This document shows, in pieces, positions 7,325 to 33,130 of a stretch of DNA of 64,000 nucleotides (its first letter is position 1; the number at the start of each line of letters is the position of its first letter). A model generated the notes under the pieces. The model did no database searches. It worked only from the letters and a program-made list of their open reading frames with translations, and had not been told where the DNA came from. The stretch lies in the NCBI RefSeq assembly GCF_048266785.1, contig NZ_JBLWYX010000009.1:52325-116324 (forward strand), given 5' to 3'. The position numbers were made by a program, and so were the translations under genes. The stretch comes from Marinobacter sp. GTDB lineage: Bacteria; Pseudomonadota; Gammaproteobacteria; Pseudomonadales; Oleiphilaceae.

Positions 7325-8380
7325 CTACTTAATAAGGCCCAGTTCCTTCATGAAGTCGATCTGACTTTGCAGTACTTTGTTGGCGAGTTCATCATCGCCT
7401 GCTGCTTCCTTCCAGGCTTCCATGGCGGTTGGGCGGGCACTGGCTATCACAGCCGGGTCAAGATGGATTATTTCAGCACCCTGCTCCTGGAACTTTTTCA
7501 GTGCTATCGCATCCTGCGCAATAATGTGTTGCCGCAGCGAACCCGAGATTTCCCTCGCGGACACTTCAAGAGCCGCTTTGTAGGAGTCTGGCAGCTTGTC
7601 GTAGGCTCTCTGGTTTGCCACATAGCTGGTCGCGGTCGTGGGCTGATGGAAGCCAGGCACAATGACGTACTTGGCCACTTCTCCCAGGCCTGCTTCCAGG
7701 TTGGCAGTCAGATCACCCCGGTCTGCAAAATCGATCACGCCCTTTTCAAGCGCCTGGTATACCTCGGCAGTCGGGAGTGGCGTAACGGCAACACCAAATT
7801 TGCTCATCACTGTGCTGGCAAGTCCGACAAAACGGCCTTTCTTGCCTTTTACATCATCAGGCTTGTTTATCGGGAATTTTGAGTGGATCGGCTCTTGGCC
7901 ATAAACGGTGGGAGCAATGTAAAAGAGCCCTGCCTGGGCGTAAGCTTCCCTCGCAAATTCCAGACCGCCTTTTTCGTAAAACCAGGCTTCATACTGGTCC
8001 GACTCGGGAAAACCAAAAGGAATCGTGCTGGTGAAAGCAAATGTTGGGATAGCACCCGCTTTATACCCGTCGAAGGTCTTCATCATTTCAAAAGCACCGC
8101 CCCGAACCGCTTCAAACGCTTGTGCTGACGGAGCCAGCTGGCCGCCGCCGAACAAACGGATGGTGAACTTGCCATCGGTAAGTTGGGAAACTCGCTCCAC
8201 AAACTTCTTCTCGTATTCGTAGGGTGTTGTGCCAGCATCCCAGAGGGCCTGCATGCGCCAGTTTACGTTAGGCTGTTCTGCTGCCAGGGTAACGCCGGAA
8301 GCAAGCGCCGCCGCTACTATAACGCCGCTTATCGTGCGCCGGATGTAACCATGAGCCTTGGGTTTTATGTGCAGTTTCAT
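7325..8380 (-). CDS. dctP: TRAP substrate-binding protein (DctP, monocarboxylate/2-oxoacid-binding type)
   Basis: Probable start is ATG at 8380 after GGAGAG (the ORF track extends to 8482). Signal peptide, WRMQALW, GGGQLAP, KGKKGRF (conserved Arg), EVYQALEKGVID. Confidence 0.9.
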   Translation of the reverse strand: MKLHIKPKAHGYIRRTISGVIVAAALASGVTLAAEQPNVNWRMQALWDAGTTPYEYEKKFVERVSQLTDGKFTIRLFGGGQLAPSAQAFEAVRGGAFEMMKTFDGYKAGAIPTFAFTSTIPFGFPESDQYEAWFYEKGGLEFAREAYAQAGLFYIAPTVYGQEPIHSKFPINKPDDVKGKKGRFVGLASTVMSKFGVAVTPLPTAEVYQALEKGVIDFADRGDLTANLEAGLGEVAKYVIVPGFHQPTTATSYVANQRAYDKLPDSYKAALEVSAREISGSLRQHIIAQDAIALKKFQEQGAEIIHLDPAVIASARPTAMEAWKEAAGDDELANKVLQSQIDFMKELGLIK

Positions 8381-8512
8381 CTCGCTCTCCAATTTTGTTT
8401 TTATGTACTCATTGACGTTATTCGCCAAAAAATCCACCGCATTATTTTGTTTAGTGTTGCCTGTACAAACTAGGCCAGACAATTAGAATCAACAAGGGAC
8501 AGTTAGCCGATG

Positions 8513-8548
8513 TGTACCACGGACTGTACCAGTGTGATAGCTGGTACA
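8513..8548. promoter_or_regulatory. Putative MocR-type operator: two direct repeats plus one inverted repeat
   Basis: TGTACCA at 8513-8519 and 8525-8531, TGGTACA at 8542-8548, between the divergent dctP and mocR-like genes. Confidence 0.6.
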
Positions 8549-8568
8549 CTTTTAAGGTTGATATAAAA

Positions 8569-9945
8569 GTGAGCATTTCTCGCGGACAACAAATTGCAGA
8601 CAGCCTGATTCAGCAAATTGAGTCTGGCCGGTTACTTCCAGGTGCCCGTTTGCCTCCCATACGTGTAGCGGCCGAAGGTCATGGGGTTTCCAAGAATACC
8701 GTTACCGATGCCTACGACCGGTTGGTTGCAACCGGCTACATTCACCCTCGTCGCGGTTCCGGGTTCTATGTACAGTCGGCGAGCTTTGCCCCGTCCATTT
8801 CCCGTTCCGAACATGTGATCGAGGCAGTAGATGTGGTGTCTTTATTGCGGGAACAACTCAACCAGCACTACGAAGTGCGTGCCGGCGATGGGCGGCTGCC
8901 CGCCACCTGGATGGAAAGCTCCGAAATTGGCAGGTATCTGAAGCGCACTTCCAACGCCACCGATTATTCTGATGATTTTGAATATGGTCGGCCACAGGGC
9001 CTTGAGGTACTGCGGGAGGATGTGGCCCGGGCTTTGAACGACCGATCGATCAACACCAGCCCGGACCAGGTGTTGATGACCTTTGGCGCAAATCATGCTC
9101 TGGACCTGATTGTTCGGCATTTTGTGCAGGCGGGCGATACGGTTCTCGTCGAAACACCGGGCTACTACCCGATGTTCAGCAAACTGAAGCTCCAAAAAGC
9201 GAAAGTTGTGGGCGTAAACCGGCAATCGGACGGACCGGATCTGGACATGCTGGAAGAGAAAATCCGTGCCCACAGGCCCAAGTTGTTTTTCGTACAGCCA
9301 ATGGCCCATAACCCGACCGGGACGTCCATGTCGCTGCAAAAGATGCACCGGTTGCTTACTTTGGCAGAAAAGTACGACCTGGTGATCATCGAAGATGACC
9401 CTTTCGCTGACATTCTGCCGAAAGCGACACCACACCTTGCGTCACTGGACGCACTCAACCGGGTTATCTACGTGGGTACGTTTTCAAAAACCCTGTCAGC
9501 GAGCTTGCGTTGTGGCTATATCGCGGCGAGTCCGGAACTTATCGCGTCGCTGACAGATATCAAAATGCTGACGGTAGTAAGCAGTTCGGGTATTACCGAG
9601 CGACTGGTTCATGAAATGATTGTTCGCGGGCGTTATCGCCGACACTTGAAACGTCTCAGAGACAGGGTTGTCAATGCCAGTATTGACGCCGTATCTGCCC
9701 TGCACGGGATAGGGCTTGACCGGGTGGAAAGCCCTACCGGAGGCTATTACATCTGGTGCCCGCTGCCCGAGGGTGTCGATTCCATGGAACTGACCGTTCA
9801 GGCTGCGCGGCAAGGCATCTTCCTTGCGCCGAGCCGGCTATTCGAGCTGACCAGCAGCGCAGGAAACGAAGCGCTGCGGGTCAATATTGCCCACGCCAAT
9901 AATCATAAGTTCCTGAACTTCATGAAAGGCGCACTGGGTATTTAA
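8569..9945 (+). CDS. MocR/GabR family regulator (GntR wHTH plus PLP aminotransferase-like domain)
   Basis: PGARLPPIR, VSKNTVTDAYDRL and RRGSGFYV wHTH; HNPTG, IIEDD and TFSKTL (PLP Lys). Probable start is GTG at 8569, in frame with ORF 8512. Confidence 0.92.
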   Translation: MSISRGQQIADSLIQQIESGRLLPGARLPPIRVAAEGHGVSKNTVTDAYDRLVATGYIHPRRGSGFYVQSASFAPSISRSEHVIEAVDVVSLLREQLNQHYEVRAGDGRLPATWMESSEIGRYLKRTSNATDYSDDFEYGRPQGLEVLREDVARALNDRSINTSPDQVLMTFGANHALDLIVRHFVQAGDTVLVETPGYYPMFSKLKLQKAKVVGVNRQSDGPDLDMLEEKIRAHRPKLFFVQPMAHNPTGTSMSLQKMHRLLTLAEKYDLVIIEDDPFADILPKATPHLASLDALNRVIYVGTFSKTLSASLRCGYIAASPELIASLTDIKMLTVVSSSGITERLVHEMIVRGRYRRHLKRLRDRVVNASIDAVSALHGIGLDRVESPTGGYYIWCPLPEGVDSMELTVQAARQGIFLAPSRLFELTSSAGNEALRVNIAHANNHKFLNFMKGALGI

Positions 9946-9951
9946 TATGGA

Positions 9952-10569
9952 TCAGGTTGTTTCATTAGCCTTGATGATTTTGGCCTGATGTTCCTCAACC
10001 AGTTCTTCCAGGCTCATGTACTCGCACTCTTTAGTAGCGATAAAGCTGTCTGCGGAGTCAATCAATATGTTGTCATCCCTCATGAACCTGCGACCGAGTA
10101 GCACTGGGTAGGAAAAGTTGCCGCGATCTGTCAATGAGAACTGGGTTTTGTGGCTGGTGCCGGAAATGCAGAAATCCATGATCACTACGTAGCGTCTCTG
10201 TGATGGCGCACCTTTGCGCTTTATGAGGACAGTGCGCTCTACCGGCCGCTCAAGCTCAAGAATGATTTCTTCATGGTCAATGTCGCCTTCCGACGGTTGG
10301 TCCTTGTGATCCGCCAGCGGAATCTGGAACTTCACCCATTTCTGGTCATCCTTCTTGAATCCCTCCACGTTAACGGCGTGCAGAGATGAGGTTTTTGCGC
10401 CGGTGTCCAATCGCGCTTTAAGCCTCAGGCCCGTATCGTTCATCACAACCCACTCTACGAAGCCGAGCGTCTCGGGAACCGAGGCCTGGTTTTCTGGCGC
10501 TGTTTCTGCCAATGCTGCTGTTGGGAAAATGAGCGCCGTAGCCAGTGAAAAAGGGATCAGAAACTTCAT
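9952..10569 (-). CDS. Secreted retropepsin-like aspartic peptidase ('ATP-dependent zinc protease'/RimK-associated family)
   Basis: Signal peptide; KARLDTGAKTSSL, FSLTDR, YPVLLGRRF. Confidence 0.85.
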   Translation of the reverse strand: MKFLIPFSLATALIFPTAALAETAPENQASVPETLGFVEWVVMNDTGLRLKARLDTGAKTSSLHAVNVEGFKKDDQKWVKFQIPLADHKDQPSEGDIDHEEIILELERPVERTVLIKRKGAPSQRRYVVIMDFCISGTSHKTQFSLTDRGNFSYPVLLGRRFMRDDNILIDSADSFIATKECEYMSLEELVEEHQAKIIKANETT

Positions 10570-11141
10570 TCAATTCCTCCTGCAAATTCCTGTAAATCAG
10601 GGAAAAATGATAAAAAATGTGCTTCAAGCTCGGAACGCAATGGGCGTATTTCGTGAATAATTCCGGCAAACGAATTCTGGAACCGAATGCGCGCTGCGAC
10701 CCTGTCCAGCGCATAACCGATGTTGTTGAGATCGCGGTAGGATCCAAACCAATCGTGAGAAACCATGTGTCGTGTGGTTCTGCTCATATCAGGCGTCATT
10801 AATGCTTCGTTGTCCTGCAGCTCCGAATAGACCCTGGTGATAAACGTGCTTTGGTCGGCATCGGTAAATTCGGTCCAGTGCTGGAGAAGAAAATGGTCGT
10901 ACAAGACATCCAGCGCAACGCCCGCGAACTTACGGCGTTGGCCTGAGAATAGCCGTTTGCTGGCCAGAACATCCGGATGCTTGTCGGTGTAACTGTCTAC
11001 CGCCAGATGGTGGCGAACGCCCAGCCTTACGGAATATGGAAGTGCTGCGAGATCCACGCCACGGGTAAAATCGCCCAGAAGGCTACCGACTCGTGCCTCG
11101 GGCGAGTCAGGAGCAAGAAACAGATGGGCAAGATGATTCAA
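10566..11141 (-). CDS. acpH: Acyl carrier protein phosphodiesterase
   Basis: MNHLAHLFL, GSLLGDF, HLAVDSYTD, LDVLYDHFL; TTG start. Confidence 0.9.
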   Translation of the reverse strand: MNHLAHLFLAPDSPEARVGSLLGDFTRGVDLAALPYSVRLGVRHHLAVDSYTDKHPDVLASKRLFSGQRRKFAGVALDVLYDHFLLQHWTEFTDADQSTFITRVYSELQDNEALMTPDMSRTTRHMVSHDWFGSYRDLNNIGYALDRVAARIRFQNSFAGIIHEIRPLRSELEAHFLSFFPDLQEFAGGIE

Positions 11142-20091: not shown

Positions 20092-21978
20092 TCAGACCCG
20101 GAAGCGTGATACGTTGCCGTCGAGGGTTTGTCCGATCTGCTCGATTTGGCCGCTGTAAACATCGTTTTCACTTGCCGCAGCTGCAGCCTCCTGGCCCAGG
20201 TCAGCAATCCGGGTAATCGAGGAGTTCAGCTCTTCCGTAACCGACGTTTGCTCTTCCGATGCCGTGGCAATCTGGGATGTCATCTGGCTTATCGAAGTGA
20301 TTGCGTCCGCAATCCGATTCAGCGACTCCATCGCATCCTGTGCCTTCTCCATACTGACATTGGAGACAGCAGTGGACGCTTTCATAACGTCAACGGCATC
20401 TTTGGCGCCTTTTTGCAGGCGTTCAATCATGTTATTGATTTCTTCAGTGCTGCTTTGAGTGCGTTGGGCGAGGTTTCTCACCTCATCAGCAACAACCGCA
20501 AACCCCCGCCCGGCATCACCGGCTCGAGCTGCTTCAATCGCCGCATTCAGGGCCAGCAGGTTCGTCTGCTGGGCAATGCCCTGGATGACTTCGAGCACGG
20601 ACGTTATGGACGTAACATCTCTACCCAGTGTGTCGATTACCTCTGCAGCGGCACTGACTTCATGGGACAGTTTCTGGACGGCATCCCGCGATGCCGCAAC
20701 AGTTTCCAGAGAGGCGCGGCTGTCTTCATCGGCCGTATTCGCCGCGTCAGCTGTTTGCTGGGCGTTCTGGGCGATTTCGTTGGCGGCTGCGGACATTTCG
20801 TTAATGGCCGCAGCGACCATATCCACTTCCGCCTGCTGGCTATCAACACTGTTGCGGCTGGTTTTCGCCGTATTTCGAAGTGAAGTTACGTTTGTTGCCA
20901 GCTCTGTGCTGCCCTGCTGCACTTCAAGAACAACATCGTGAATCTTCTTCACAAACTGATTGAAGCTTGCCGCAAGCTCGCCAAACTCATCACGGGCACT
21001 GTCGTCAAGCCGTTGAGTCAGGTCCGCATCGTTTGAGCCGATATCTGCCATCGCAGCATTCAGGCGCCGAACCGGGACCATCAGAGCACGTATGCCCATA
21101 TGAAGAACAACAAGAGATACCAAAAGCCCGACAATCGCGATAATCAGGCCCGTCATGATTGCGCTGCGAACCGGGGCATTCAGCTTGTCTTCATTAACGA
21201 AGGTTCCCAGGTACCAGTCCACACCGCGAGCCTGACTGATGCGATGGAAACTGGCGCTCCAGGGAGTGTCATCTTTCTGGTAGGCATGCTCGCCCCCGTC
21301 CAGTTTCGGGGATTGGCCGAGCAGCGAGCTGATGTTTTTACCGATAAGATCCCGTTCCGGATGGTAAAGCACAGTGCCCTCGCGGTTGATAAGTGCGGCA
21401 TAGCCCGTGCCGGCCAGATTGATTACAGACAGCATGTCATCAATGGCTTTCAGCGTAATATCACCACCTGCAACACCCGTATTTTCGCCGCGTGCAATGG
21501 GCGCAAGTGTGGAAATGACGATCTCACCGGTGGCTGCATCAAGGTATGGCTCGGTAAATGATGAGCGCCCGAGCTCTATAGCTTTCTTGTACCATGGGCG
21601 CACTCGAGGATCGTAGTCTGATGGCAGAGAAGCCTCATCCGCTTCTGTTTTCATGAGCATGTAGCCATCGTTACGGCCGACATACACATCCTTGAAGTTA
21701 CCCCCGGTCGAAATTGCCCCGAGCAAGGTGCGGGCTTGCTGATCCCCCGTCACCGTTTCCAGTGCCTTGGCTGTGGCTTCGGTCATCTTTAGCCGAGTAT
21801 TGAGCCAATCGGCAATACTCGACGTATTCTGCTCCGCCGTGTTTTCAATCAAGGCATCGACATAGGTTTCAGTCGTGTTCTGCAACCTGAGATTGCCGGA
21901 AATGGTGAAGGCAGCCATCACCAGAACAAGCAGGATACTGAAGGTGACCAACAGCTTTTGACCAAAGTTTAGAGGCAC
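20092..21978 (-). CDS. Methyl-accepting chemotaxis protein, dCache sensor (PctA-like)
   Basis: Two [12 protein letters not shown] and FTEPYLDA amino-acid-type dCache motif, HAMP, MCP signalling domain. Confidence 0.93.
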
Positions 21979-22092
21979 AGTTTACTCCCGATGGTTGTTG
22001 CACTGGTTTTCGGCAGCTTGTGCGAACTCTTTAGTTCCTTCTGATAAACTTGGTCGTTAATTCCATTCCCCGCCGTACAGGAGCCCCGCTGA

Positions 22093-23613
22093 ATGGCCCA
22101 TGAAGAACTGCATCTCAATCTGCGCAACCTGACACTTGATGATTACGAGCAACTTCAGGTGTTAATGGATCGTGTTTATGACGATATTGGCGGCGCCTGG
22201 CCAAAGGACACCATCAAGGCACTGGTTGAACAGTTCCCGGATGGCCAGATTTGCATTGAGGACAAAGGCCAGCTCGTTGCCGTCGCGCTCACCGTGTCTG
22301 TTAAATATGAGCGATTCAGCAACCCTCATACTTATGACGATCTGATTAAACGGAACGAACAGATCAGGCATGACCCGAAAGGTGACTCCCTTTATGGGCT
22401 GGATGTATTCATTCACCCGGAGTACCGCGGCTACCGCCTTGGGCGGCGATTGTATGAAGCTCGCAAAGAGCTGTGCCGGTCCATAAACTTGCGCGCCATC
22501 CTTGCTGGTGGGCGCATACCTGGGTATTTCAAGTATTCAGATCAGTATTCACCTGCTGAATACATTGACCGGGTTGATCGCAGAGATATTTACGATCCGA
22601 TTCTGAGCTTCCAATTGTCGAACGACTTTCAGGTCACCCGACTGATGCACAAATACCTCCCGGAGGATGAAAAATCCCAGGGGTACGCCACCTTGCTGGA
22701 ATGGCGGAACATCCTCTATACCCCGCCCTCGTCGGTGCTGAACGAAAAGAAAACGCAGGTCCGGATGGGCGCAGTTCAGTGGCAGATGCGTGAATTCGGT
22801 TCCGTTGAAGAGGTGCTGGAACAGGTTGAGTACTTCGTGGATGCGCTGTCTGATTACAAGAGCGACTTCGCACTCTTCCCTGAGTTTTTTAATGCACCGT
22901 TGATGGGACTGACCGATCAGGTGGATCAGACCCGCGCTATTCGGTTCCTTGCAGGGTTTACCCAGCAATTCCGGGACAGAATGTCTGATATGGCGGTCAG
23001 CTATAACATCAACATCATCACTGGCTCCATGCCGCTGCTTGAGAACGACCGGGTTTATAATGTGTCTTATCTGTGCCACCGCGATGGCCGAGTGGACGAG
23101 CAACGCAAGATCCACATTACGCCCCACGAACGTCGTGACTGGGTTGTTGAAGGCGGGAACAAGTTTGAAGTCTTCGATACAGATTCCGGGCGCGTTGCGA
23201 TTCTCATCTGTTATGACATTGAGTTCCCTGAGCTGGGCCGAATTGCCGCAATTAATGAAGTTGACATTATTTGTGTGCCCTTCTGGACAGACACCAAAAA
23301 CGGCTATTTGCGGGTTCGTCATTGCGCCCAGGCCCGGGCCATTGAAAACGAATGTTATGTGGTGATCACCGGCAGTGTCGGGAACCTGCCAAAAGTGGAA
23401 AACCTTGACGTGCAATATGCGCAATCGTCGGTGTTCTCGCCATCTGATTTCGCTTTCCCTCACGACGCAGTAATGGCAGAGACAACGCCCAATACCGAGA
23501 TGATCATGTTCTCGGATATGGACCTGGAAAAGCTCACATTGGTAAGGAACGAAGGGTCAGTAACCAACCTTAAAGACCGAAGAATTGACATGTACGAAAT
23601 TATCACCCGTTAG
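22093..23613 (+). CDS. GNAT acetyltransferase fused to carbon-nitrogen hydrolase (nitrilase superfamily)
   Basis: N-terminal GNAT (VFIHPEYRGYRLG); C-terminal E-K-C triad (FPEFF, QRKIHITP, ICYDIEFP). Confidence 0.9.
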   Translation: MAHEELHLNLRNLTLDDYEQLQVLMDRVYDDIGGAWPKDTIKALVEQFPDGQICIEDKGQLVAVALTVSVKYERFSNPHTYDDLIKRNEQIRHDPKGDSLYGLDVFIHPEYRGYRLGRRLYEARKELCRSINLRAILAGGRIPGYFKYSDQYSPAEYIDRVDRRDIYDPILSFQLSNDFQVTRLMHKYLPEDEKSQGYATLLEWRNILYTPPSSVLNEKKTQVRMGAVQWQMREFGSVEEVLEQVEYFVDALSDYKSDFALFPEFFNAPLMGLTDQVDQTRAIRFLAGFTQQFRDRMSDMAVSYNINIITGSMPLLENDRVYNVSYLCHRDGRVDEQRKIHITPHERRDWVVEGGNKFEVFDTDSGRVAILICYDIEFPELGRIAAINEVDIICVPFWTDTKNGYLRVRHCAQARAIENECYVVITGSVGNLPKVENLDVQYAQSSVFSPSDFAFPHDAVMAETTPNTEMIMFSDMDLEKLTLVRNEGSVTNLKDRRIDMYEIITR

Positions 23614-23716
23614 GTGTTGAAGAACCGCCGTATGGCACTGATGGCGTTGCAAAACCTTTGGCCAGTGTCTATTGTTTAATCAATATCAAGTCAGCCTTTG
23701 CAGAGACTCAGTATTC

Positions 23717-24115
23717 ATGAAAGAAGCGTTGCCCGATCTTGTCGCCCGTTTCAGAATCCGGCAGGGCCTGTTCCGCAAGGAGCAGGTCGAGGCCGCGCTT
23801 TTTGAATTGGATGCTTACGGTTGCGTTATGAAGACGGACAAGATGTTCAATCCCGGCGATACCGTTGTGCTTGATCTGATTATGGACATGCCGTTTGATA
23901 ACATTCGTGCTGAAAATATTACAGGTTTAATTACCGAGCGTAGAAAGCACTGCAGCAACTTCTTCTATTCTATTGATTTTGTTGAGTTAAACTCTGATGG
24001 CGGCACGGCACTCGAAGAAAAGCTGCGCCGTATCAGAGAGGTACTTTCAAAAAAGCAGTCGTTGAAATCACGTCGTTCTTCAGGTTCCATGCCCGGCTTC
24101 CGGCAGATGGCCTGA
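23717..24115 (+). CDS. PilZ-like beta-barrel protein, degenerate
   Basis: ELDAYGC in the position of DxSxxG, PGDTVVLDL, YSIDF; probable start ATG 23717 (ORF track 23672). Confidence 0.5.
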   Translation: MKEALPDLVARFRIRQGLFRKEQVEAALFELDAYGCVMKTDKMFNPGDTVVLDLIMDMPFDNIRAENITGLITERRKHCSNFFYSIDFVELNSDGGTALEEKLRRIREVLSKKQSLKSRRSSGSMPGFRQMA

Positions 24116-24155
24116 TCACTATTTTCGTTCTACCTGCCTGCAAGGAGACAATCTC

Positions 24156-24797
24156 ATGGCGAAGAAAGCCAAGGCGAGTGTTGAAAAGATCGTAAAAAAA
24201 GTTAACAAGGAATTTGAGAAAACCTCATCCCAGATCGAAGGTCTGGTCAGCGATGCGATGAAGCAGCTCGATACACTGCAACATCAGGTTCAGGAGCCGA
24301 TTCGCAAACTTCTTAAAGAAGTTGATGAAGTGCGCGAGCGGGAAATGAAACGTTTTAATGACGAATTCGAGCGTCGTCTGGACGAGTTCCATGAACTGCA
24401 ATCCAACATTCTTGAACGTCTGGGCGTTGCTTCGAAAGAAGACATCCGCAAGGCTGAAAAAGAAAGTAAAAAAGACAGCAACAAAGTGAAAGCGGCTAAG
24501 GCAAGCACCCCTGCCAAGAAGCCTGCAGCGAAAAAACCAACGCCTAAAAAAGCGCCGGCCAAAAAGCCTGCTGCAAAAAAAGCACCCGCTGCCAAGACTC
24601 CAAAGCCCGTGGATAAAAGCGATCTCACGCTGGTTAAAGGCGTCGGACCGGCTACCGCCAAAAAGATGAAAGAAGCCGGAATCACGTCCATCGATCAGAT
24701 TGCCAACCCATCGGCGGCTGATCAGGAAAAGCTGAATGCTTTCTCGAATATCAAAGGATTTGATCAACTCAGTGCCGAAGCCAAGAAAATTAACTGA
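24156..24797 (+). CDS. Phasin/PhaF-like coiled coil, AKKP-repeat linker and C-terminal helix-hairpin-helix protein
   Basis: LGVASKEDI, repeats AKKPAAKK..., DLTLVKGVGPATAKKMKEAGI. Confidence 0.7.
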   Translation: MAKKAKASVEKIVKKVNKEFEKTSSQIEGLVSDAMKQLDTLQHQVQEPIRKLLKEVDEVREREMKRFNDEFERRLDEFHELQSNILERLGVASKEDIRKAEKESKKDSNKVKAAKASTPAKKPAAKKPTPKKAPAKKPAAKKAPAAKTPKPVDKSDLTLVKGVGPATAKKMKEAGITSIDQIANPSAADQEKLNAFSNIKGFDQLSAEAKKIN

Positions 24798-27073
24798 TGC
24801 GAACGCCTGACCAGCCTGTTTTACGGGACATTGTCCTGATTGGCGGCGGGCACAGCCACGTCGGGGTACTCAAACGGTTTGCAATGAAACCGGTGCCCGG
24901 CGTTCGGCTGACCCTCATTTGCCGCGATACCCACACGCCCTACTCCGGAATGCTGCCTGGCTACGTGGCAGGACACTACAGCTACGACGATGTGCACATC
25001 GATCTTAGCCGCCTGGCAGAGTATGCAGGTGCACGCTTTTACCGGGCCGAAGCCTATGGTATTGATCGCTCCAGCAAGCGGGTAATCTGTAAAGGCCGTC
25101 CGGATGTGCCTTACGACATACTGTCGATCAATATCGGTTCATCCCCCAGAGTGAATGAAGTGGACGGGGCGTCGCAGTACGCGGTGCCGGTCAAGCCAAT
25201 TACAGGTTTCAATAACCGCTGGCTCGCCCTTCTTTCACGCATTGAAAATCATGAAGGGCCGCTCACGATTGGTGTTGTGGGCGCGGGTGCTGGTGGTGTT
25301 GAGCTGACGCTGGCAATGCAGTACCGACTCAGAAACGAGTTGGAACAGCGCGGCCGGGATCCCGGCCAACTGCATTTCCACTTATTTGATGCTGCCAATG
25401 AAATTCTCCCCACTCACAATGAAAAAGTGCGCGAGATCTTTCGGAAGACCCTCTCCGAGCGTGGGGTAAAGCTACATCTCGGCTCACCAGTAGAAAAAGT
25501 CAGTGAAGGGTTTTTACGCACAGCCGCTGGCGAATCCTTGCAGACAGACGAAGTTCTCTGGGTAACCCGAGCCGGCGGCCCGGCATGGTTGGAGGAAACA
25601 GGGCTGGCACTGGATGACGGCCAGTTCCTCAGAGTGCGGGACACCCTGCAGGTTGAAAATGATGACAATATATTCGCGGCGGGCGATATTGCTAATGTAG
25701 TCAATCACCCCCGCGAAAAAGCCGGTGTGTTTGCGGTGCGCCAGGGCCCGCCTCTGGCAGATAACCTCAAACGCATGGCTTTGGGCCAAACGCCCAAAGA
25801 TTTCCACCCTCAGAAAAAGTGGCTGGCACTGATCAGCACCGGCGACAAATACGCTGTTGCCTCTCGCGGTGATATGCAATTTGATGGCGCCCTGGTGTGG
25901 CGCTGGAAGGACTGGATAGACCGTCGCTTCATGCAGAAATTTACAGACCTCCCGGCTATGGATGATGGGGGTGTGCTGCCCGATACTGCCGCAGCACAAA
26001 ATCCGGAGGAAGCGTCTCAGGCTATTTCTGCCGTTGCCATGCGTTGTGGTGGTTGCGGCGCAAAGGTTGGCAGTACGGTTCTTTCAAGGGCGTTGGGTGA
26101 GCTCCGGCCCATTGAGCGAGACGATATTCTTATTGGCCTGCACGCACCGGATGATGCCGCCGTTCTGCGGGTTCCACCCGGCAAAGCCGTAGTACATACC
26201 GTGGATTTCTTCCGCGCCTTTATTGATGACCCTTACACGTTTGGTCGCGTTGCTGCCAACCACGCCTTGGGTGACGTCTTTGCCATGGGCGCTGAAGCAC
26301 AAAGTGCGACCGCAGTGGCCACGGTACCATATGGCATTGAGTCCAAAGTGGAGGACGTGGTTTTCCAGATGATGTCGGGTGCAGTGGATGTATTAAATGA
26401 AGCCGGTTGTGCTTTAGTCGGTGGCCACACGGGTGAAGGCCGCGAGCTTGCCTTGGGTTTTGCGGTGAATGGCCTTATTGACCCCGATGAAGTGATGAGC
26501 AAAGGCGGTTTGCGGGCCGGTGATGTTCTGATCCTCACCAAACCCATTGGCACCGGAACTTTGTTTGCCGCTCACGCACGCCTGGCAGCCAAAGGCCGCT
26601 GGATTGATTCCGCCCTCGCTTCCATGGTGCAGTCGAATAAGAAAGCCGCAGATTGCCTGCGCAGTTTCGGCTCCAAAGCCTGTACGGATGTGACCGGTTT
26701 CGGCTTGCTGGGCCATCTGGTGGAAATGACGCGGCCGTCCGGTGTGGACGCCGAGTTGGATCTATCAGCAATCCCCATTCTGCCGGGTGCGGAAGAAACG
26801 GCCGCAGCAGGCATTCTCAGTTCCCTGCAACCGGCCAACATACGGCTGCGCCGGGGTATCCGGGATCAGGAAAAGTGGGTGAAGCACCCGCGCTACGCCC
26901 TGATCTTTGATCCACAGACTGCCGGCGGCTTGCTGGCGAGTGTCTCGGCCGATAAGGCGGAAAACTGTGTCCGGGAGCTCAAAGCCCTGGGTTATCCACA
27001 CACCGCAGTCATCGGGCGGGTTTTGCCCCAGGATGAAAGCGGGCCGATTGAGCCGATTACTCTAAGAGAATGA
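24797..27073 (+). CDS. selD: Selenide, water dikinase with N-terminal FAD-dependent (NDH-2-like) oxidoreductase domain
   Basis: N-terminal IGGGHSH, PYSGMLPG, FAAGD; C-terminal MRCGGCGAKVG, DDAA, LVGGHT, TKPIGTG, DVTGFGLLGHL, DPQTAGGLL. Confidence 0.95.
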   Translation: MRTPDQPVLRDIVLIGGGHSHVGVLKRFAMKPVPGVRLTLICRDTHTPYSGMLPGYVAGHYSYDDVHIDLSRLAEYAGARFYRAEAYGIDRSSKRVICKGRPDVPYDILSINIGSSPRVNEVDGASQYAVPVKPITGFNNRWLALLSRIENHEGPLTIGVVGAGAGGVELTLAMQYRLRNELEQRGRDPGQLHFHLFDAANEILPTHNEKVREIFRKTLSERGVKLHLGSPVEKVSEGFLRTAAGESLQTDEVLWVTRAGGPAWLEETGLALDDGQFLRVRDTLQVENDDNIFAAGDIANVVNHPREKAGVFAVRQGPPLADNLKRMALGQTPKDFHPQKKWLALISTGDKYAVASRGDMQFDGALVWRWKDWIDRRFMQKFTDLPAMDDGGVLPDTAAAQNPEEASQAISAVAMRCGGCGAKVGSTVLSRALGELRPIERDDILIGLHAPDDAAVLRVPPGKAVVHTVDFFRAFIDDPYTFGRVAANHALGDVFAMGAEAQSATAVATVPYGIESKVEDVVFQMMSGAVDVLNEAGCALVGGHTGEGRELALGFAVNGLIDPDEVMSKGGLRAGDVLILTKPIGTGTLFAAHARLAAKGRWIDSALASMVQSNKKAADCLRSFGSKACTDVTGFGLLGHLVEMTRPSGVDAELDLSAIPILPGAEETAAAGILSSLQPANIRLRRGIRDQEKWVKHPRYALIFDPQTAGGLLASVSADKAENCVRELKALGYPHTAVIGRVLPQDESGPIEPITLRE

Positions 27074-27075
27074 GC

Positions 27076-28065
27076 TTAAAGGGTGCTTCTCTCGGAGCTG
27101 CGCTGCACCGCAAGGGACAGCGCCTGCTCCAGGGATTCCCGCTCTTTTTCCGGCGTAAACAGGCTGGCAAGCTGAGCAACCTGTTTACGTAACGTCTCCA
27201 AAAACTCCGTATCACTTTCCGCACGCAAGAGTAGCTCGGCGAGTGCCTGGGTGTCCCCAACCGGGTAGTAGCCGGCGTAATCCTCACCAAGTAACCCGGT
27301 ATTCCCGGAAATATCCGAGGCAATAACCGGCAGGCCGGCACGACAGGCTTCCGAAACAACGTTCGCCCCACCCTCCATCACCGAGCTCATCACCAGCAAT
27401 TGGCTTTCAACCATCAACTGGTCTATCTGCCCTTTTTCCAGTTCGCCGAGCCATCTGAAACGGGGGTTCTCCTGCATTTCCTGTTTCGCGAGATTTTCCC
27501 AATATGCATCGTGGGGTTTGCCCGCACACGAGACGCGGATGCGAGATTTGGAGGGTAACAACCTGGACGCCAGAGCTGCCCGCAGCGAATCTTTTTCATC
27601 CCGTAGATGGCCGATGACGCAAACATCAAAACAAGATGAGTCAGAAACTGCTGTTCCAGCGGGGCCGTCAGACTGTTCAGCCGACTGAAAAAGCGTAACC
27701 AGTTTGTCCCGAACATGCTCTGGAATATCGCGGCCAACCTGTGCGTGCAAACCAATCAACGCATCGGCCGCCTGCATGGAATAGAGGGTTTGTTCAGGAT
27801 ATTCGTACTGGTGCCGGTAGATATCCGTTCCTGTGAGCGCCACAACCAAGGGCTTGCCGGGCCATGTGTCCCTGAATAGGCGAACGGCCTCATGGCTGCG
27901 CCACGCATGCAGAGCTATAAAAAGATCACAAGGCTCACCGTTATAGGCGGTCACAACAGAGACCTTATGCCCCGCCTGCTCCAGCAACGTTTGCCAACGC
28001 TCTGCGGTTGCCCGGTTGCCGGCTTTCGAGCCCGGGCCTGCCGGCGTGATCATGATGATATCCAT
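27076..28065 (-). CDS. senB: Selenosugar synthase SenB-type glycosyltransferase (TIGR04348-like)
   Basis: ITPAGPGSKAGNRATAERW, ALHAWRS, LTGTDIY, GHLRDEKD, SSVMEGGANVVSEA; adjacent to selD. Confidence 0.88.
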   Translation of the reverse strand: MDIIMITPAGPGSKAGNRATAERWQTLLEQAGHKVSVVTAYNGEPCDLFIALHAWRSHEAVRLFRDTWPGKPLVVALTGTDIYRHQYEYPEQTLYSMQAADALIGLHAQVGRDIPEHVRDKLVTLFQSAEQSDGPAGTAVSDSSCFDVCVIGHLRDEKDSLRAALASRLLPSKSRIRVSCAGKPHDAYWENLAKQEMQENPRFRWLGELEKGQIDQLMVESQLLVMSSVMEGGANVVSEACRAGLPVIASDISGNTGLLGEDYAGYYPVGDTQALAELLLRAESDTEFLETLRKQVAQLASLFTPEKERESLEQALSLAVQRSSERSTL

Positions 28066-28260
28066 AGCGCCCTTTGGTATAACGAGGCCCTTTCAGAGCC
28101 GGGACAGAATTTTGATAGACTTGCATGGAATTTCATGGGAATAGTGCCCGGATACTTGACCTATTTATACCCGTAATCCGTATAGCTGTTCAGGGTTGGG
28201 GGGAATCAGAGTATCCTGCACCTTTGCTTTATCAATCACATAACCGGTCGAGGATTTCAA

Positions 28261-29136
28261 ATGGCTTTGAATCTTATACGGAAGTTGATGGTTTCCAGCT
28301 TGTTCTGTTTCACCGCTGCTTCGGCAACGGCAGAGACGTTTGTGTTCACTGCGATCCCCGATGAAGATGAAACAAAACTCGTAGAGCGGTTTCGCGGTGT
28401 AGCGGCTTATCTCTCTGAGCAACTGGATGTGGATGTTCGCTACATTCCGGTCAAGTCTTACGCGGCGGCTGTTTCAGCGTTCCGTAACAACCAGGTTCAG
28501 TTGGCTTGGTTCGGTGGCCTTTCAGGCGTTCAGGCGCGCCGATTGGTGCCGGGCTCTGAAGCCATCGCCCAAGGTGTGGAAGACGAAGCATTTGAGACCT
28601 ACTTTATTGCCAATACCAATACGGGTATCGAGCCAGCCGACGAACTCTCCGGGCTGAAAGACCAGCTGCAGGGCAAAACCTTTACCTTTGGCTCCAAAGG
28701 TTCAACCTCTGGCCGGCTCATGCCGGAATTCTACGTTCGGGATACCTTTGGTGAGAAGCCAGAAGACTTCTTCTCGCGCGTTGGTTTCAGCGGCAATCAC
28801 ACCCGCACCCTTCGTCTGGTTGAAGCCGGCACCTACGAGGTAGGCGCACTCAACTTCCAGGTTTGGGAGAAAGAGCTGAGTGATGGAAACATTGATACCG
28901 ACGCAGTCCAGGTTATCTGGAAAACACCCGCCTACCCTGATTATCAGTGGACAATCCGTGGCGACGTGGACGAGCGCTTTGGTGAAGGCTTCAAACAGCG
29001 TGTTACCGAGGCACTGTTGAATCTTGATAACCCGGAGCTTCTGGAAAGCTTTCCGCGTTCGGGCTTTATTCCTGCCTCCAATGACGACTATGAGCCGATT
29101 CGTAAAACAGCCGAAGAGATTGGAATCCTCGATTAA
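28261..29136 (+). CDS. PhnD-like ABC substrate-binding protein, putative selenate/selenium oxyanion type
   Basis: Signal peptide; FVFTAIPDEDET, LAWFGGLSGVQAR, FGSKGSTSGRLMP; selD/senB context. Confidence 0.8.
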   Translation: MALNLIRKLMVSSLFCFTAASATAETFVFTAIPDEDETKLVERFRGVAAYLSEQLDVDVRYIPVKSYAAAVSAFRNNQVQLAWFGGLSGVQARRLVPGSEAIAQGVEDEAFETYFIANTNTGIEPADELSGLKDQLQGKTFTFGSKGSTSGRLMPEFYVRDTFGEKPEDFFSRVGFSGNHTRTLRLVEAGTYEVGALNFQVWEKELSDGNIDTDAVQVIWKTPAYPDYQWTIRGDVDERFGEGFKQRVTEALLNLDNPELLESFPRSGFIPASNDDYEPIRKTAEEIGILD

Positions 29137-29786
29137 TGTCAGGCTTCGATCTTTCCGGCCTTACGGCCTCATTCAGCGGCAAGCGGGTCATTGGCCCGCT
29201 GTCGCTGAACGTTAATCCGGGCGACAAGATTGCACTGGTTGGTAAAAGCGGTGCGGGTAAATCCACCCTTATACGGCTGATTCACGAACGGGTTGACCGG
29301 GATTCTTCCCTGATTCCTCAGGATCTGGGGTTGGTGAATGCCCTTTCCGTGTTTCATAACGTATTCATGGGGCAGTTGGACAAGCATTCAACCTGGTACA
29401 ACACCGTAACGCTTGCGCGCCCGTTCGCGAAAGACCGTGCCGAGGTACACACTCTGCTGCAGTCCCTCGGAATGACAGAAAAGCTATGGATTCCCACAGC
29501 CTCTCTTTCTGGCGGGCAACGCCAGCGTGTCGCCATTGCACGGGCCCTCTATCGGAACGCGCCGGTACTGCTTGCCGATGAGCCGGTTTCAGCTCTTGAT
29601 GGCCCCATGGCTAACTCGGTTATGACGGATCTTCGGGATCGCTTTTCAACCAGCATTATTGCTCTGCACGATGTGGACCTGGCGCTGAGTTATTGCACCA
29701 GAATCGTTGGCATACAGGACGGTCAGATTGCTCTGGATCAGCCCAGTGAAAATCTTGCAGCCTCAGACATTATGTCTCTTTACTAG
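29136..29786 (+). CDS. ABC ATP-binding protein (PhnC-like)
   Basis: GKSGAGKST, LSGGQRQRVAIARAL, LLADEP; TAATG overlap with the SBP gene. Confidence 0.9.
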   Translation: MSGFDLSGLTASFSGKRVIGPLSLNVNPGDKIALVGKSGAGKSTLIRLIHERVDRDSSLIPQDLGLVNALSVFHNVFMGQLDKHSTWYNTVTLARPFAKDRAEVHTLLQSLGMTEKLWIPTASLSGGQRQRVAIARALYRNAPVLLADEPVSALDGPMANSVMTDLRDRFSTSIIALHDVDLALSYCTRIVGIQDGQIALDQPSENLAASDIMSLY

Positions 29787-29803
29787 GTAACACGGCCCGT
29801 TTC

Positions 29804-31270
29804 ATGTTCTCTTCCCCAACGGTTCGTACCAGCCTTGTTTTCCTCGCCATTGCTTTGGTGGGTTTACTGTTCGCGGATATTGCCATTACCGCATCAAACC
29901 CATGGCGGGATCTGGGTAACTTTTTCCTTGGCATCGTAACACCCAACTTTTTCAGCACTGAAGGCCTGATGACCGCGCTGTTGAGAACAGTAGCGTTCGC
30001 CTTTGTGGGGGTTGCTCTTGGCAGCATCTGCGGGTTCCTGCTGGCGCTGGTTTATAAATCGTTACCCGTGCGAATTTTCTCCGCTTTTATTCGCGCCATT
30101 CACGAGCTCTTCTGGGCTCTGATCTTCCTGCAGTTTTTCGGATTTCATCCGCTGACAGGCGTGCTGGCCATCGCCATTCCTTACGCAGGCATCTTTGCCA
30201 AGGTTTATTCCGAGATTCTGGAAGAAGCCGATCCGGAACCGGGCCGTGTCCTGCCGCCTGGCACGGGGAATATCACGGCGTTTCTCTACACGCGTATCCC
30301 GGATTGTTGGGTGAAAATGCGCACCTATACGTCCTACAGGCTGGAGTGTGGCCTGCGTTCAAGTGCGATACTTGGTTTCGTTGGTCTGCCAACACTCGGT
30401 TTCTACCTCGAGGCGTCGTTTTCTCAAGGTCTGTATTCCGACGCCGGTGCCATGCTGATTCTGTTTTATGTGTTGATCGCCACCATGCCATTCTGGGTGC
30501 GGCCAAAGCTTCTGCCGGTGTACGTATTGGGAGCCCCCTTCTTTCTGGGCGAGGGCCTTCCGATTGTGTGGGGCAACGTAGAGCGCTTTTTCACCGAAGA
30601 CATTGTGCCCGCGCCGCTGCGGAACGGTGAAGGTCTGACGGGGCTTATGCCCTGGCTGAATGATCTGATGATCAACGAGGCCATGCCGGGAATCTGGAAC
30701 ACCATTGTGCTCACCCAGATTGCACTCGTGGCTACGGGGGTTCTCTCGTTGTTGGCGTTCCCTCTGATCTCCAACCACTTTGGTGGCCCTATGCGGCGCA
30801 ACGCAGGGCACGTCGCTCTGGTGATTGCCCGGTCTACGCCTGAATACATCTTGGCGTACATCCTGCTGCAGCTCTGGGGGCCATCAATGCTGCCTGCGGT
30901 TGTTGCACTGGCGCTGCATAATGGTGGGATTATCGGCCACCTGATTGGCCGACAAACCAATTCCATCAAGCTCCGGGCCGATGCAGCAACCGGGTTTAAC
31001 CGGTATAGCTGGGAGTTGGTGCCTCGTGTTTACCGCTCGTTTCTGGCGTTTCTGTTCTACCGCTGGGAAATCATCATGCGGGAAACAGCCATTCTGGGGA
31101 TTCTGGGCATCTACACGCTGGGGTTCTATGTCGACAGCGCCATACAGAACATCCGGTTTGATCGCGCCATGGTGTTGATCCTGGTAACCGCCCTGCTCAA
31201 CATTGGCGTCGATACGCTTGGTCGCTACATCCGTCGCAAGCTCGCTCTGCAAACCATGCCAACCTGCTGA
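29804..31270 (+). CDS. ABC permease, duplicated PhnE/PtxC-type domains
   Basis: RAIHELFWAL..YRLECGLRSSAILGFVG and RSTPEY..YRWEIIMRETAILGILG repeats. Confidence 0.88.
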   Translation: MFSSPTVRTSLVFLAIALVGLLFADIAITASNPWRDLGNFFLGIVTPNFFSTEGLMTALLRTVAFAFVGVALGSICGFLLALVYKSLPVRIFSAFIRAIHELFWALIFLQFFGFHPLTGVLAIAIPYAGIFAKVYSEILEEADPEPGRVLPPGTGNITAFLYTRIPDCWVKMRTYTSYRLECGLRSSAILGFVGLPTLGFYLEASFSQGLYSDAGAMLILFYVLIATMPFWVRPKLLPVYVLGAPFFLGEGLPIVWGNVERFFTEDIVPAPLRNGEGLTGLMPWLNDLMINEAMPGIWNTIVLTQIALVATGVLSLLAFPLISNHFGGPMRRNAGHVALVIARSTPEYILAYILLQLWGPSMLPAVVALALHNGGIIGHLIGRQTNSIKLRADAATGFNRYSWELVPRVYRSFLAFLFYRWEIIMRETAILGILGIYTLGFYVDSAIQNIRFDRAMVLILVTALLNIGVDTLGRYIRRKLALQTMPTC

Positions 31271-31294
31271 AACCCGTTCCCGGTGGCCTTGGTT

Positions 31295-32725
31295 TTAAAG
31301 AACCGGGCCGATGGTTGCGATAACGTTGTGCCATATTCTTTCGTGGTAGTGCCAGGCAAGAACCGTTGGCAAGGTGACCACTTCAGAGCGGCTGAGGTAA
31401 GTCTGCTGCCGTTCTTCAATTGCCAGGGTCGTGGCCTCGTCCTGCAGAAGGATGTTGTTTTCATAATTCAGATCAAAGCTGCGCAAATCGAGATTTGAAG
31501 ACCCGATCAGACTGATCTTTCCATCGATCGTGAGGGTTTTGGCATGAAGGAGTCCGCCCTTGAACTCATGGATGATGCAGCCTGCATCAAGTAGTCGGTG
31601 GTAATAACTGCGGCTGGCAGCGGCGACAATCAAGCTGTCATTTACCTTGGGAAATATCAACGAAACCGACACGCCCCGGTAGGCGGTTGCGCACAGTGCT
31701 TCCAGAACCGTTGCATCAGGCACGAAGTATGGTGTGGTTAGTGTCAGTCTGTCCTGGGCACAGGCGATCAGGTTGGCAAAGAGCTGTGGTGTGGCTCCGT
31801 GACGCTCGGTTGGCCCAACACCCATAACCTGTGCCGGGAATCCTCCATCGGTGGGCCCGCGAGATAACGCAATGCCATCCAGGGATTCATTGGTTGCCTG
31901 CATCCAGTCACTGGCAAACAGCAACTGGTTCTGAACCACCACCGGCCCCGTAAAGCGGAGCATGATGTCTACCCAGGGTGCGTATTTCGCTTTAACCAGA
32001 AATTCCGGATCAGCAGAATTTCGGCTGCCGCAATAGGTGACGCGTGAATCAATCACCGTGATCTTGCGGTGGTTACGAAGATCCAGCCGGCTGGTCAGAA
32101 TGGTGCGGATCGGGTGCTTCAGCGATAGAGCTACAGCAAGATGAACGCCTGCCTCTCTCATGCGCTGCCAGAGCGCGGAGTTAATCATCGCACGTGACCC
32201 CAGCCCATCCGCCATAGCGCGGCATGTAATGCCTCTGTGGGCTGCGCGGATCAGTGCTTCGGCGATGGCATGGCCGGTATTGTCATCAATCCATATGTAA
32301 TACAGCACGTGCACATGATCAATGGCGGCATCAATGTCGGCAACCATCCGGGTAAGGGTTTCGTTGCCGTCAGCCATCAATTCGGCGGCATTTCCCATGG
32401 ATGGATGAAAGCCATTAATCGAACCCGCATACCGGAATGCCGAGAGGTAAACCGGGTCGATCAGTTTCCCTGTGCTGGTCGCCTCGCCCATAAACCAGGA
32501 GGCTTTGGCTCTTATTTCTTCGAAGATTTCTTTGTGTCGCTTATCCGCACGGTTGCCAAGGTCTGTTTCGCCAAAGAGGAAATACATTGCACTACCGAAA
32601 TAGGGCAAAAGGTTAAGTATGACGAACCAAGCCAGTCTTCCCGGAGGCGAAAGGTCATCGCGCAGAAGAATCCGGATCGTGAATAAAAGGACCAGAAGTG
32701 TGTGGAGTAAAAGAATAACGCCCAT
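31295..32725 (-). CDS. cls: Cardiolipin synthase
   Basis: Two N-terminal TM; two HKD motifs (NHRKITVID, LHAKTLTID); probable start ATG 32725 after AAGGAAG. Confidence 0.93.
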   Translation of the reverse strand: MGVILLLHTLLVLLFTIRILLRDDLSPPGRLAWFVILNLLPYFGSAMYFLFGETDLGNRADKRHKEIFEEIRAKASWFMGEATSTGKLIDPVYLSAFRYAGSINGFHPSMGNAAELMADGNETLTRMVADIDAAIDHVHVLYYIWIDDNTGHAIAEALIRAAHRGITCRAMADGLGSRAMINSALWQRMREAGVHLAVALSLKHPIRTILTSRLDLRNHRKITVIDSRVTYCGSRNSADPEFLVKAKYAPWVDIMLRFTGPVVVQNQLLFASDWMQATNESLDGIALSRGPTDGGFPAQVMGVGPTERHGATPQLFANLIACAQDRLTLTTPYFVPDATVLEALCATAYRGVSVSLIFPKVNDSLIVAAASRSYYHRLLDAGCIIHEFKGGLLHAKTLTIDGKISLIGSSNLDLRSFDLNYENNILLQDEATTLAIEERQQTYLSRSEVVTLPTVLAWHYHERIWHNVIATIGPVL

Positions 32726-32760
32726 CAAGCTTCCTTTGAGGATACAAAACCCGAACAACT

Positions 32761-32820
32761 ATCAGACGTGCTATCCAGAATGCTCTCGAGGGTGCTATTG
32801 AGAGTACTATTGAGAGTGCT
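32761..32820. repeat. Five degenerate tandem 12-bp repeats upstream of cls
   Basis: ATCAGACGTGCT, ATCCAGAATGCT, CTCGAGGGTGCT, ATTGAGAGTACT, ATTGAGAGTGCT. Confidence 0.75.
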
Positions 32821-32824
32821 CTCA

Positions 32825-33130
32825 TCAATCTTCGCGACTTTGCTCCAGCACCCAATCAGTTCCAAGTTCAATCGCCTCTGCTCCATCCGGCGTGTCTGCA
32901 GAAACTCCAGCGACCCTCGGGCGTGTGAACCCGCCCTCTTCTGTGGTTGCCATGGACTCCACATCAACAGACAGAACCAGATATGTAATGCCGCCTGAAA
33001 TAACTCTGGCCCGGTGAGTAAGGCCAAAAACAAACCGGCAGTAGTCCAGCTTTAATTGAAGAAGATCCTGTTCCGCTTTTCGGATTTTTCGCAAAAGCAC
33101 TTTTTGTACACTTTCCCCGTAATCCATCAC
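32825..33130 (-). CDS. Hypothetical protein (101 aa)
   Basis: ORF with protein-like composition and an N-terminal coiled coil, filling an intergenic gap. Confidence 0.6.
   Translation of the reverse strand: MMDYGESVQKVLLRKIRKAEQDLLQLKLDYCRFVFGLTHRARVISGGITYLVLSVDVESMATTEEGGFTRPRVAGVSADTPDGAEAIELGTDWVLEQSRED

Follow-up and report, generated by a model that had tools for sequence, protein, structure and literature searches.

The closest described systems are the biosynthetic pathways for selenoneine, encoded by senABC in Variovorax paradoxus, and for ovoselenol, encoded by the ovs genes. A putative selenate transporter is found near many sen clusters (Kayrouz et al. 2022, doi 10.1101/2022.04.13.486033). 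For ovoselenol, a later report (Kayrouz et al. 2024, doi 10.1101/2024.04.10.588772) already describes a layout in which senBC and ovsA are separated, with Marinobacter vinifirmus as an example; this species makes ovoselenol, and its ΔovsA mutant accumulates SeGlcNAc. According to the same report, OvsA carries a ...HYMQAYR motif whose positions decide between histidine-C5 and hercynine-C2 chemistry, three residues switch the substrate, and the wild-type enzyme accepts histidine exclusively. For SenB, the roles of individual residues are known from mutagenesis of the Variovorax enzyme, VpSenB (PMC10891094): Lys158 is catalytic, N20, T23 and E231 form the sugar-donor triad, and H58, R61, T83, T85 and R155 line the selenophosphate pocket.

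The locus considered here lies on contig 9 of a Marinobacter assembly (G000; 4.58 Mb in 42 contigs, 99.8% complete), within a stretch of 64,000 nucleotides that we refer to as the window. A senB gene sits there between a selenophosphate synthetase fusion and the genes of an ABC importer, as follows (window coordinates):

24797-27073, plus strand: oxidoreductase::SelD fusion, the SenC-equivalent, 758 aa, matching TIGR03169 and TIGR00476.
27076-28065, minus strand: senB, selenosugar synthase, 329 aa, identified by TIGR04348, a match to PDB SenB entries and conserved catalytic residues.
28261-29136, plus strand: PhnD-like periplasmic substrate-binding protein of an ABC importer, matching the TIGR04553 'putative selenate ABC transporter' substrate-binding protein at 430.3 bits (cut-off 250).
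29136-29786, plus strand: PhnC-like ATPase of the importer, matching PF00005; its best NCBIfam match, TIGR02315 (phnC), is below cut-off at 167 bits.
29804-31270, plus strand: duplicated PhnE-like permease of the importer, 488 aa, matching TIGR01097 (PhnE) in two stretches at 203.9 bits, just below cut-off.

The identity of senB is clear. Its product scores 415.6 bits against NCBIfam TIGR04348, 'selenoneine biosynthesis selenosugar synthase SenB' (cut-off 300, E 1e-124), and is the sole match over cut-off in the genome; it also matches the solved SenB structures 8FBX, 8JJQ and 8K5U with E about 1e-48, and Pfam places SenB in glycosyltransferase family 4. Identity to VpSenB is 38.6%, and equivalents of VpSenB N20, T23, H58, R61, T83, T85, D86, R155, K158, E231 and E239 are all kept, among them N17, T20, H53, R56, T78, T80, R155, K158 and E231 in the numbering of the window protein. 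Two non-defining positions are altered, V157 to E and H235 to N; the latter yields EGGANV instead of EGGAHV, a form common to all 32 other gamma-type SenB loci examined, canonical sen clusters included. The nearest relatives are from Marinobacter, at 96% identity (a Marinobacter sp. MAG) and 88% (M. maritimus). We conclude that the open reading frame is SenB, with the predicted activity of forming SeGlcNAc from UDP-GlcNAc and selenophosphate.

senB and the SelD fusion are convergent, with 2 bp between their stop codons, and senB is divergent from the importer genes at 28261-31270. The N-terminal part of the fusion (residues 11-382) is an FAD/NAD pyridine-nucleotide-disulfide oxidoreductase scoring 509 bits against TIGR03169, Nterm_to_SelD (cut-off 310), while the C-terminal part (residues 415-720) is a selenophosphate synthetase SelD scoring 306 bits against TIGR00476 (cut-off 125). 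The N-terminal Cys/Sec...Lys motif of SelD is present as GCGAK (Cys420, Lys423), and a search of the whole genome found no other copy of selD above cut-off. The substrate-binding protein of the importer adjoins senB in every Marinobacter locus with enough flank, and also in the canonical sen clusters L033 and L041; the ATPase and permease are syntenic across Marinobacter. An Rfam scan of positions 21000-33000, judged by E-value, found no regulatory RNA near senB, and scans for promoters and terminators around the locus gave results at or below shuffle expectation.

On the other side of the fusion, at 24156-24797 on the plus strand, is a gene for a Lys/Ala/Pro-rich protein with a phasin-like coiled-coil N-terminus and a C-terminal helix-hairpin-helix domain, the stop of which overlaps the start of the fusion (TGATG). 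We considered this protein as a member of the pathway and rejected it: it keeps its position where senB is absent (G016 and G006) and where the fusion is absent (L031), and is probably a syntenic neighbour only. As a separate observation, senB is without an adjacent oxidoreductase::SelD fusion at L031 (Marinobacter sp. VGCF2001) and in G003, G007 and G018, the sole selD being a stand-alone gene (about 350 aa) at another chromosomal site.

The initial annotation described this senB as an orphan. It reported that the window has no SenA or OvsA selenoxide synthase, and offered three readings: the acceptor enzyme is unlinked, the selenosugar is itself the final product, or it enters a selenometabolite pathway not yet described. 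The observation holds, and extends to the whole of contig 9: a six-frame search with Pfam FGE-sulfatase (PF03781) recovers no EgtB/SenA/OvoA/OvsA-type enzyme on that contig, window included. Across the genome the same search gives two matches only, on contigs 8 and 17. The latter is egtB (TIGR03440, 565 bits), which lies beside egtD (TIGR03438, 343 bits) at G000:C17:739-3115 (L002); this is an ordinary ergothioneine pair, and the presence of EgtD means that hercynine is available in the cell. The match on contig 8 and a methyltransferase on contig 1 are the partners of interest:

G000:C8:87982-89352 (L001:973-2343), plus strand: OvsA, 456 aa, DinB_2 plus FGE-sulfatase, assigned by structure match, motif and tree.
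G000:C1:282268-283023 (L013:1489-2244; L064:8269-9024), minus strand: stand-alone methyltransferase of the OvoA C-terminal type, 251 aa, matching TIGR04345.

The acceptor enzyme is thus unlinked, as the first of the three readings had it, but the orphan label has to be dropped, since an ovsA orthologue and a methyltransferase are encoded in the same genome. At the level of genes, this is the outcome that the initial annotation had named as refuting it. senB and ovsA are on different contigs, with a minimum separation of about 158 kb. The whole-genome search also established that the N-terminal sulfoxide synthase domain of OvoA is absent from this genome. As to other uses of selenophosphate, selA was not found in the genome and contig 5 carries selU (351 bits), so the SelD of the window also supplies tRNA 2-selenouridine synthesis. 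All four functions (senC/selD, senB, ovsA and methyltransferase) are therefore in the genome, at three separate loci, and nothing is missing from the pathway.

It is thus very probable that this senB serves the ovoselenol (ovs) pathway already published, where it provides the selenosugar, and that the genes are dispersed in the way typical of Marinobacter. The proposed route would run as follows. The ABC importer of the window, judging from its family name and its linkage to senB, would take up a selenium oxyanion. The oxidoreductase::SelD fusion, whose SelD activity is predicted from an equivalog HMM match, would make selenophosphate; that its N-terminal reductase domain might supply the selenide is speculative. 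SenB would then convert UDP-GlcNAc and selenophosphate to SeGlcNAc, a reaction shown for homologues. OvsA, using O2, would couple SeGlcNAc to C5 of free histidine via a selenoxide that eliminates 2-acetamidoglucal, giving 5-selenohistidine; this activity has been shown for the OvsA of Halomonas utahensis (doi 10.1101/2024.04.10.588772). Finally, the methyltransferase encoded on contig 1 may use SAM to methylate N-pi, yielding ovoselenol. This methylation is the least certain step of the route.

The methyltransferase scores 306.5-306.9 bits against TIGR04345 (cut-off 170), yet it is not adjacent to ovsA, and it shares only 46-50% identity with the OvsM type that seven other members of the genus encode next to ovsA, as against 67-71% with the C-terminal domain of the OvoA from G006, of which it is the positional counterpart. 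These relationships are what would be expected if the enzyme were a leftover of the ovothiol type, inactive on the selenium compound, and if the pathway stopped at 5-selenohistidine. One closed genome could be read in the same way: G022 has senB, the selD fusion and ovsA (L057), and no TIGR04345 methyltransferase at E<=1e-30, either adjacent to ovsA or elsewhere; in this strain the pathway may end with 5-selenohistidine, or an unrelated methyltransferase may act. We nevertheless consider such an early stop unlikely for G000. Its methyltransferase gene is intact, and 12 further ovsA-bearing genomes, none of them with the cluster-type OvsM, have the same unlinked type, conserved at 68-92% identity. 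Among the 22 ovsA-bearing genomes, seven have the ovsA-adjacent type, 13 the unlinked type, one a third type and one none, and it is because of this complementary distribution that we infer action on 5-selenohistidine. In addition, the gene is missing from G016, which itself has neither senB nor ovsA, and, with OvoA absent from G000, the enzyme there would have no 5-thiohistidine as substrate.

Ovoselenol is thus retained as the probable end of the pathway, and the chromosomal context of the methyltransferase offers a view of where the enzyme may have come from. The gene occupies a slot with an NfsA-type nitroreductase on one side and, downstream, a block of conserved genes. The same slot in G006, which is without senB and ovsA, holds a full-length bifunctional OvoA of 726 aa (L060:7013-9193, minus strand; TIGR04344 676 bits, TIGR04345 315 bits). 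Similarity to OvoA continues for seven codons upstream of where the stand-alone methyltransferase now starts, and tblastn found no trace, even at E=10, of a degraded OvoA N-terminal domain beside the stand-alone gene in G000 and G015. From these comparisons, the data suggest that the unlinked 'OvsM' of 13 of the 22 ovsA-bearing genomes may be the OvoA methyltransferase domain, kept after loss of the sulfoxide synthase domain. More tentatively, the ovoselenol pathway could have been assembled piecemeal as a replacement for ovothiol, from core selD/selU, an accessory senB, an ovsA some 1.5 Mb away and a recycled OvoA C-terminal domain as the methylating enzyme; we put this forward as a possibility to be taken seriously rather than as the account we would favour. 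If it is true, the unlinked 'OvsM' of most sampled Marinobacter is a recycled ovothiol enzyme and no orthologue of the characterised OvsM.

A further observation concerns G013, where a second, OvoA-like gene is seen at positions 5798-7479 of L063 (G013:C32:19000-33000). It aligns to OvoA in two pieces (residues 58-379 and 457-724) that overlap by a few bases, which suggests a frameshifted or disrupted ovoA.

That the contig 8 enzyme is a SenA, which together with hercynine from the contig 17 EgtD would yield selenoneine, is a reading to which we give very little credence, though it is the one that automated annotation would favour. egtB and egtD are both present, and the protein scores 434.9 bits against the NCBIfam SenA model NF041186, marginally above the cut-off of 420. 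A true senB-adjacent SenA, that of G028, scores 511.6 bits with the same model. All Marinobacter OvsA proteins (those of G000 and 21 other genomes) fall at 422-443 bits, just over the cut-off, and there is no OvsA-specific NCBIfam model among their matches. Automatic annotation will consequently predict selenoneine (SenA) where ovoselenol is expected.

Three comparisons point instead to OvsA. First, the contig 8 protein, in which both PF12867 and PF03781 match, scores 643 bits in phmmer against the structures deposited as 'selenoxide synthase OvsA' (8U41/8U42), as against 176 bits for SenA (8K5I); identity is 61.5% to the crystallised OvsA (8U41) and 38-44% to SenA-type enzymes whose genes adjoin senB in other taxa. 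Second, the residues of the OvsA motif are conserved: Y403, M406, Q410, Q435, A436 and Y437 correspond to Y398, M401, Q405, Q430, A431 and Y432 of 8U41, a check that covered, out of 17 motif positions, the residues named in the text of the published report. At the positions that OvsA fills with Met, Gln and Ala, the aligned SenA-type proteins carry Tyr, Asn or Thr, and Phe or Tyr, respectively; the hercynine-binding Tyr366, Asn395 and Phe396 of SenA (motif ...HYYN(F/Y)(F/Y)R) are replaced in the contig 8 protein by Met, Gln and Ala. All aligned sequences share the iron-site residues H52, H135 and H139. Third, in a maximum-likelihood tree the contig 8 protein, the crystallised OvsA and three further Marinobacter enzymes of the unlinked kind form a clade with 100/100 support. 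Its stem measures 1.49 substitutions per site, and every senB-adjacent SenA-type protein falls outside it.

The distribution of EgtD bears on the same question. Among the 24 other genomes sampled, egtD occurs in four and an OvsA-type enzyme in 21, which fits an enzyme that uses histidine, not hercynine. Motif, structural scores and tree together assign the contig 8 enzyme to the predicted OvsA type, despite its SenA HMM score. In G000 the egtB-egtD pair coexists with the ovs genes; given that EGT/SEN and OVO/OVS are described as the over-represented combinations in the 2024 report (doi 10.1101/2024.04.10.588772), the pairing of EGT with OVS is the less common one. A DASS-family permease encoded 31 nt upstream of ovsA was considered as a pathway member and set aside: it also precedes ovsA in G005, but the upstream flanks covered for G015 and G022 do not contain it.

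The linkage between senB and ovsA, or rather its absence, can be followed across the genus in a sample of 25 genomes (G000 and 24 others), which are kin and not independent. senB and ovsA occur together in 21 of the 25, G000 included. Both are absent from the complete genomes G006 and G016, and the only two genomes in which one is found without the other are 77% and 84% complete. Given the relatedness of the strains, we read the pattern as a minimum of one or two events of joint gain or loss and attach no statistic to it. Phylogenetic profiling of senB without SenA had been proposed; across the genus, what accompanies such a senB is ovsA.

In five genomes that carry both genes on one contig (three of them closed), senB and ovsA are 1.46, 1.51, 1.74, 1.67 and 1.64 Mb apart. 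No iron enzyme is found in the senB flanks at any of 15 Marinobacter loci (up to 10 kb a side, with the full 10 kb in 12), whereas a SenA-type enzyme is directly beside senB at 20 of 21 loci from outside Marinobacter, often with egtD. At the 15 Marinobacter loci the ABC importer adjoins senB wherever the flank reaches, and so does the SelD fusion, with the exception of L031, where it is gone. In G016, only 132 bp separate the fusion from the ABC importer genes, and senB is missing from the interval (L055, G016:C21:268000-286000, positions 7803-11075). The selD fusion is found in all 24 of the other genomes and selU in 23; both look like core genes, so that senB shares this selD with other uses and has no dedicated copy.

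Finally, it is most improbable that the pathway ends with SeGlcNAc or that this compound enters an undescribed route independent of OvsA. The 64-kb window has no acceptor enzyme, and the senB-selD-ABC module, being compact, has the look of a self-contained unit, but the genome encodes ovsA and a methyltransferase, whose distribution across the genus follows that of senB, and M. vinifirmus accumulates SeGlcNAc only on disruption of ovsA (doi 10.1101/2024.04.10.588772). The second and third readings of the initial annotation therefore find no support, ovsA being both present and co-distributed with senB.

The locus is the selenosugar half of a published pathway, in a published dispersed layout, from the genus in which that layout was described, and in this sense it is already known. 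A senB without senA in a single window is no evidence for a new selenometabolite. As the acceptor enzyme of Marinobacter is routinely 1.5 Mb away, a whole-genome check is needed before a selenosugar cassette is called an orphan. Beyond correct annotation, the finding matters little.

Comparison with the described systems places G000 closest to M. vinifirmus DSM 17747, with which it shares the genus, the same four functions, an OvsA-type iron enzyme and the chromosomal separation of senBC from ovsA. It differs in that the genes are at three loci, the methyltransferase also being unlinked from ovsA, and in having an additional egtB-egtD pair. The ovs system of Halomonas utahensis DSM 3051, the source of the OvsA structures 8U41/8U42, has an OvsA 61.5% identical to ours, with the same Y/M/Q/Q/A residues and His triad, and the same senB/senC chemistry. 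There, however, the four ovs genes are clustered, while in G000 ovsA, ovsM and senBC are mutually unlinked. With the selenoneine system of V. paradoxus (senABC) the likeness is in the SenB and SelD chemistry, and in the putative selenate transporter nearby in many clusters. In contrast to that system, G000 has no SenA, and its acceptor enzyme carries the OvsA motif and should use C5 of histidine, not C2 of hercynine; its SelD is fused to an oxidoreductase, and its SenB has EGGANV in place of EGGAHV, and E in place of V157. Lastly, OvoA, the bifunctional 5-histidylcysteine sulfoxide synthase/methyltransferase of ovothiol biosynthesis, resembles the G000 system in its methyltransferase, which belongs to TIGR04345 and occupies the same chromosomal slot as the OvoA of G006, but the N-terminal sulfoxide synthase domain that characterises OvoA is found nowhere in G000.
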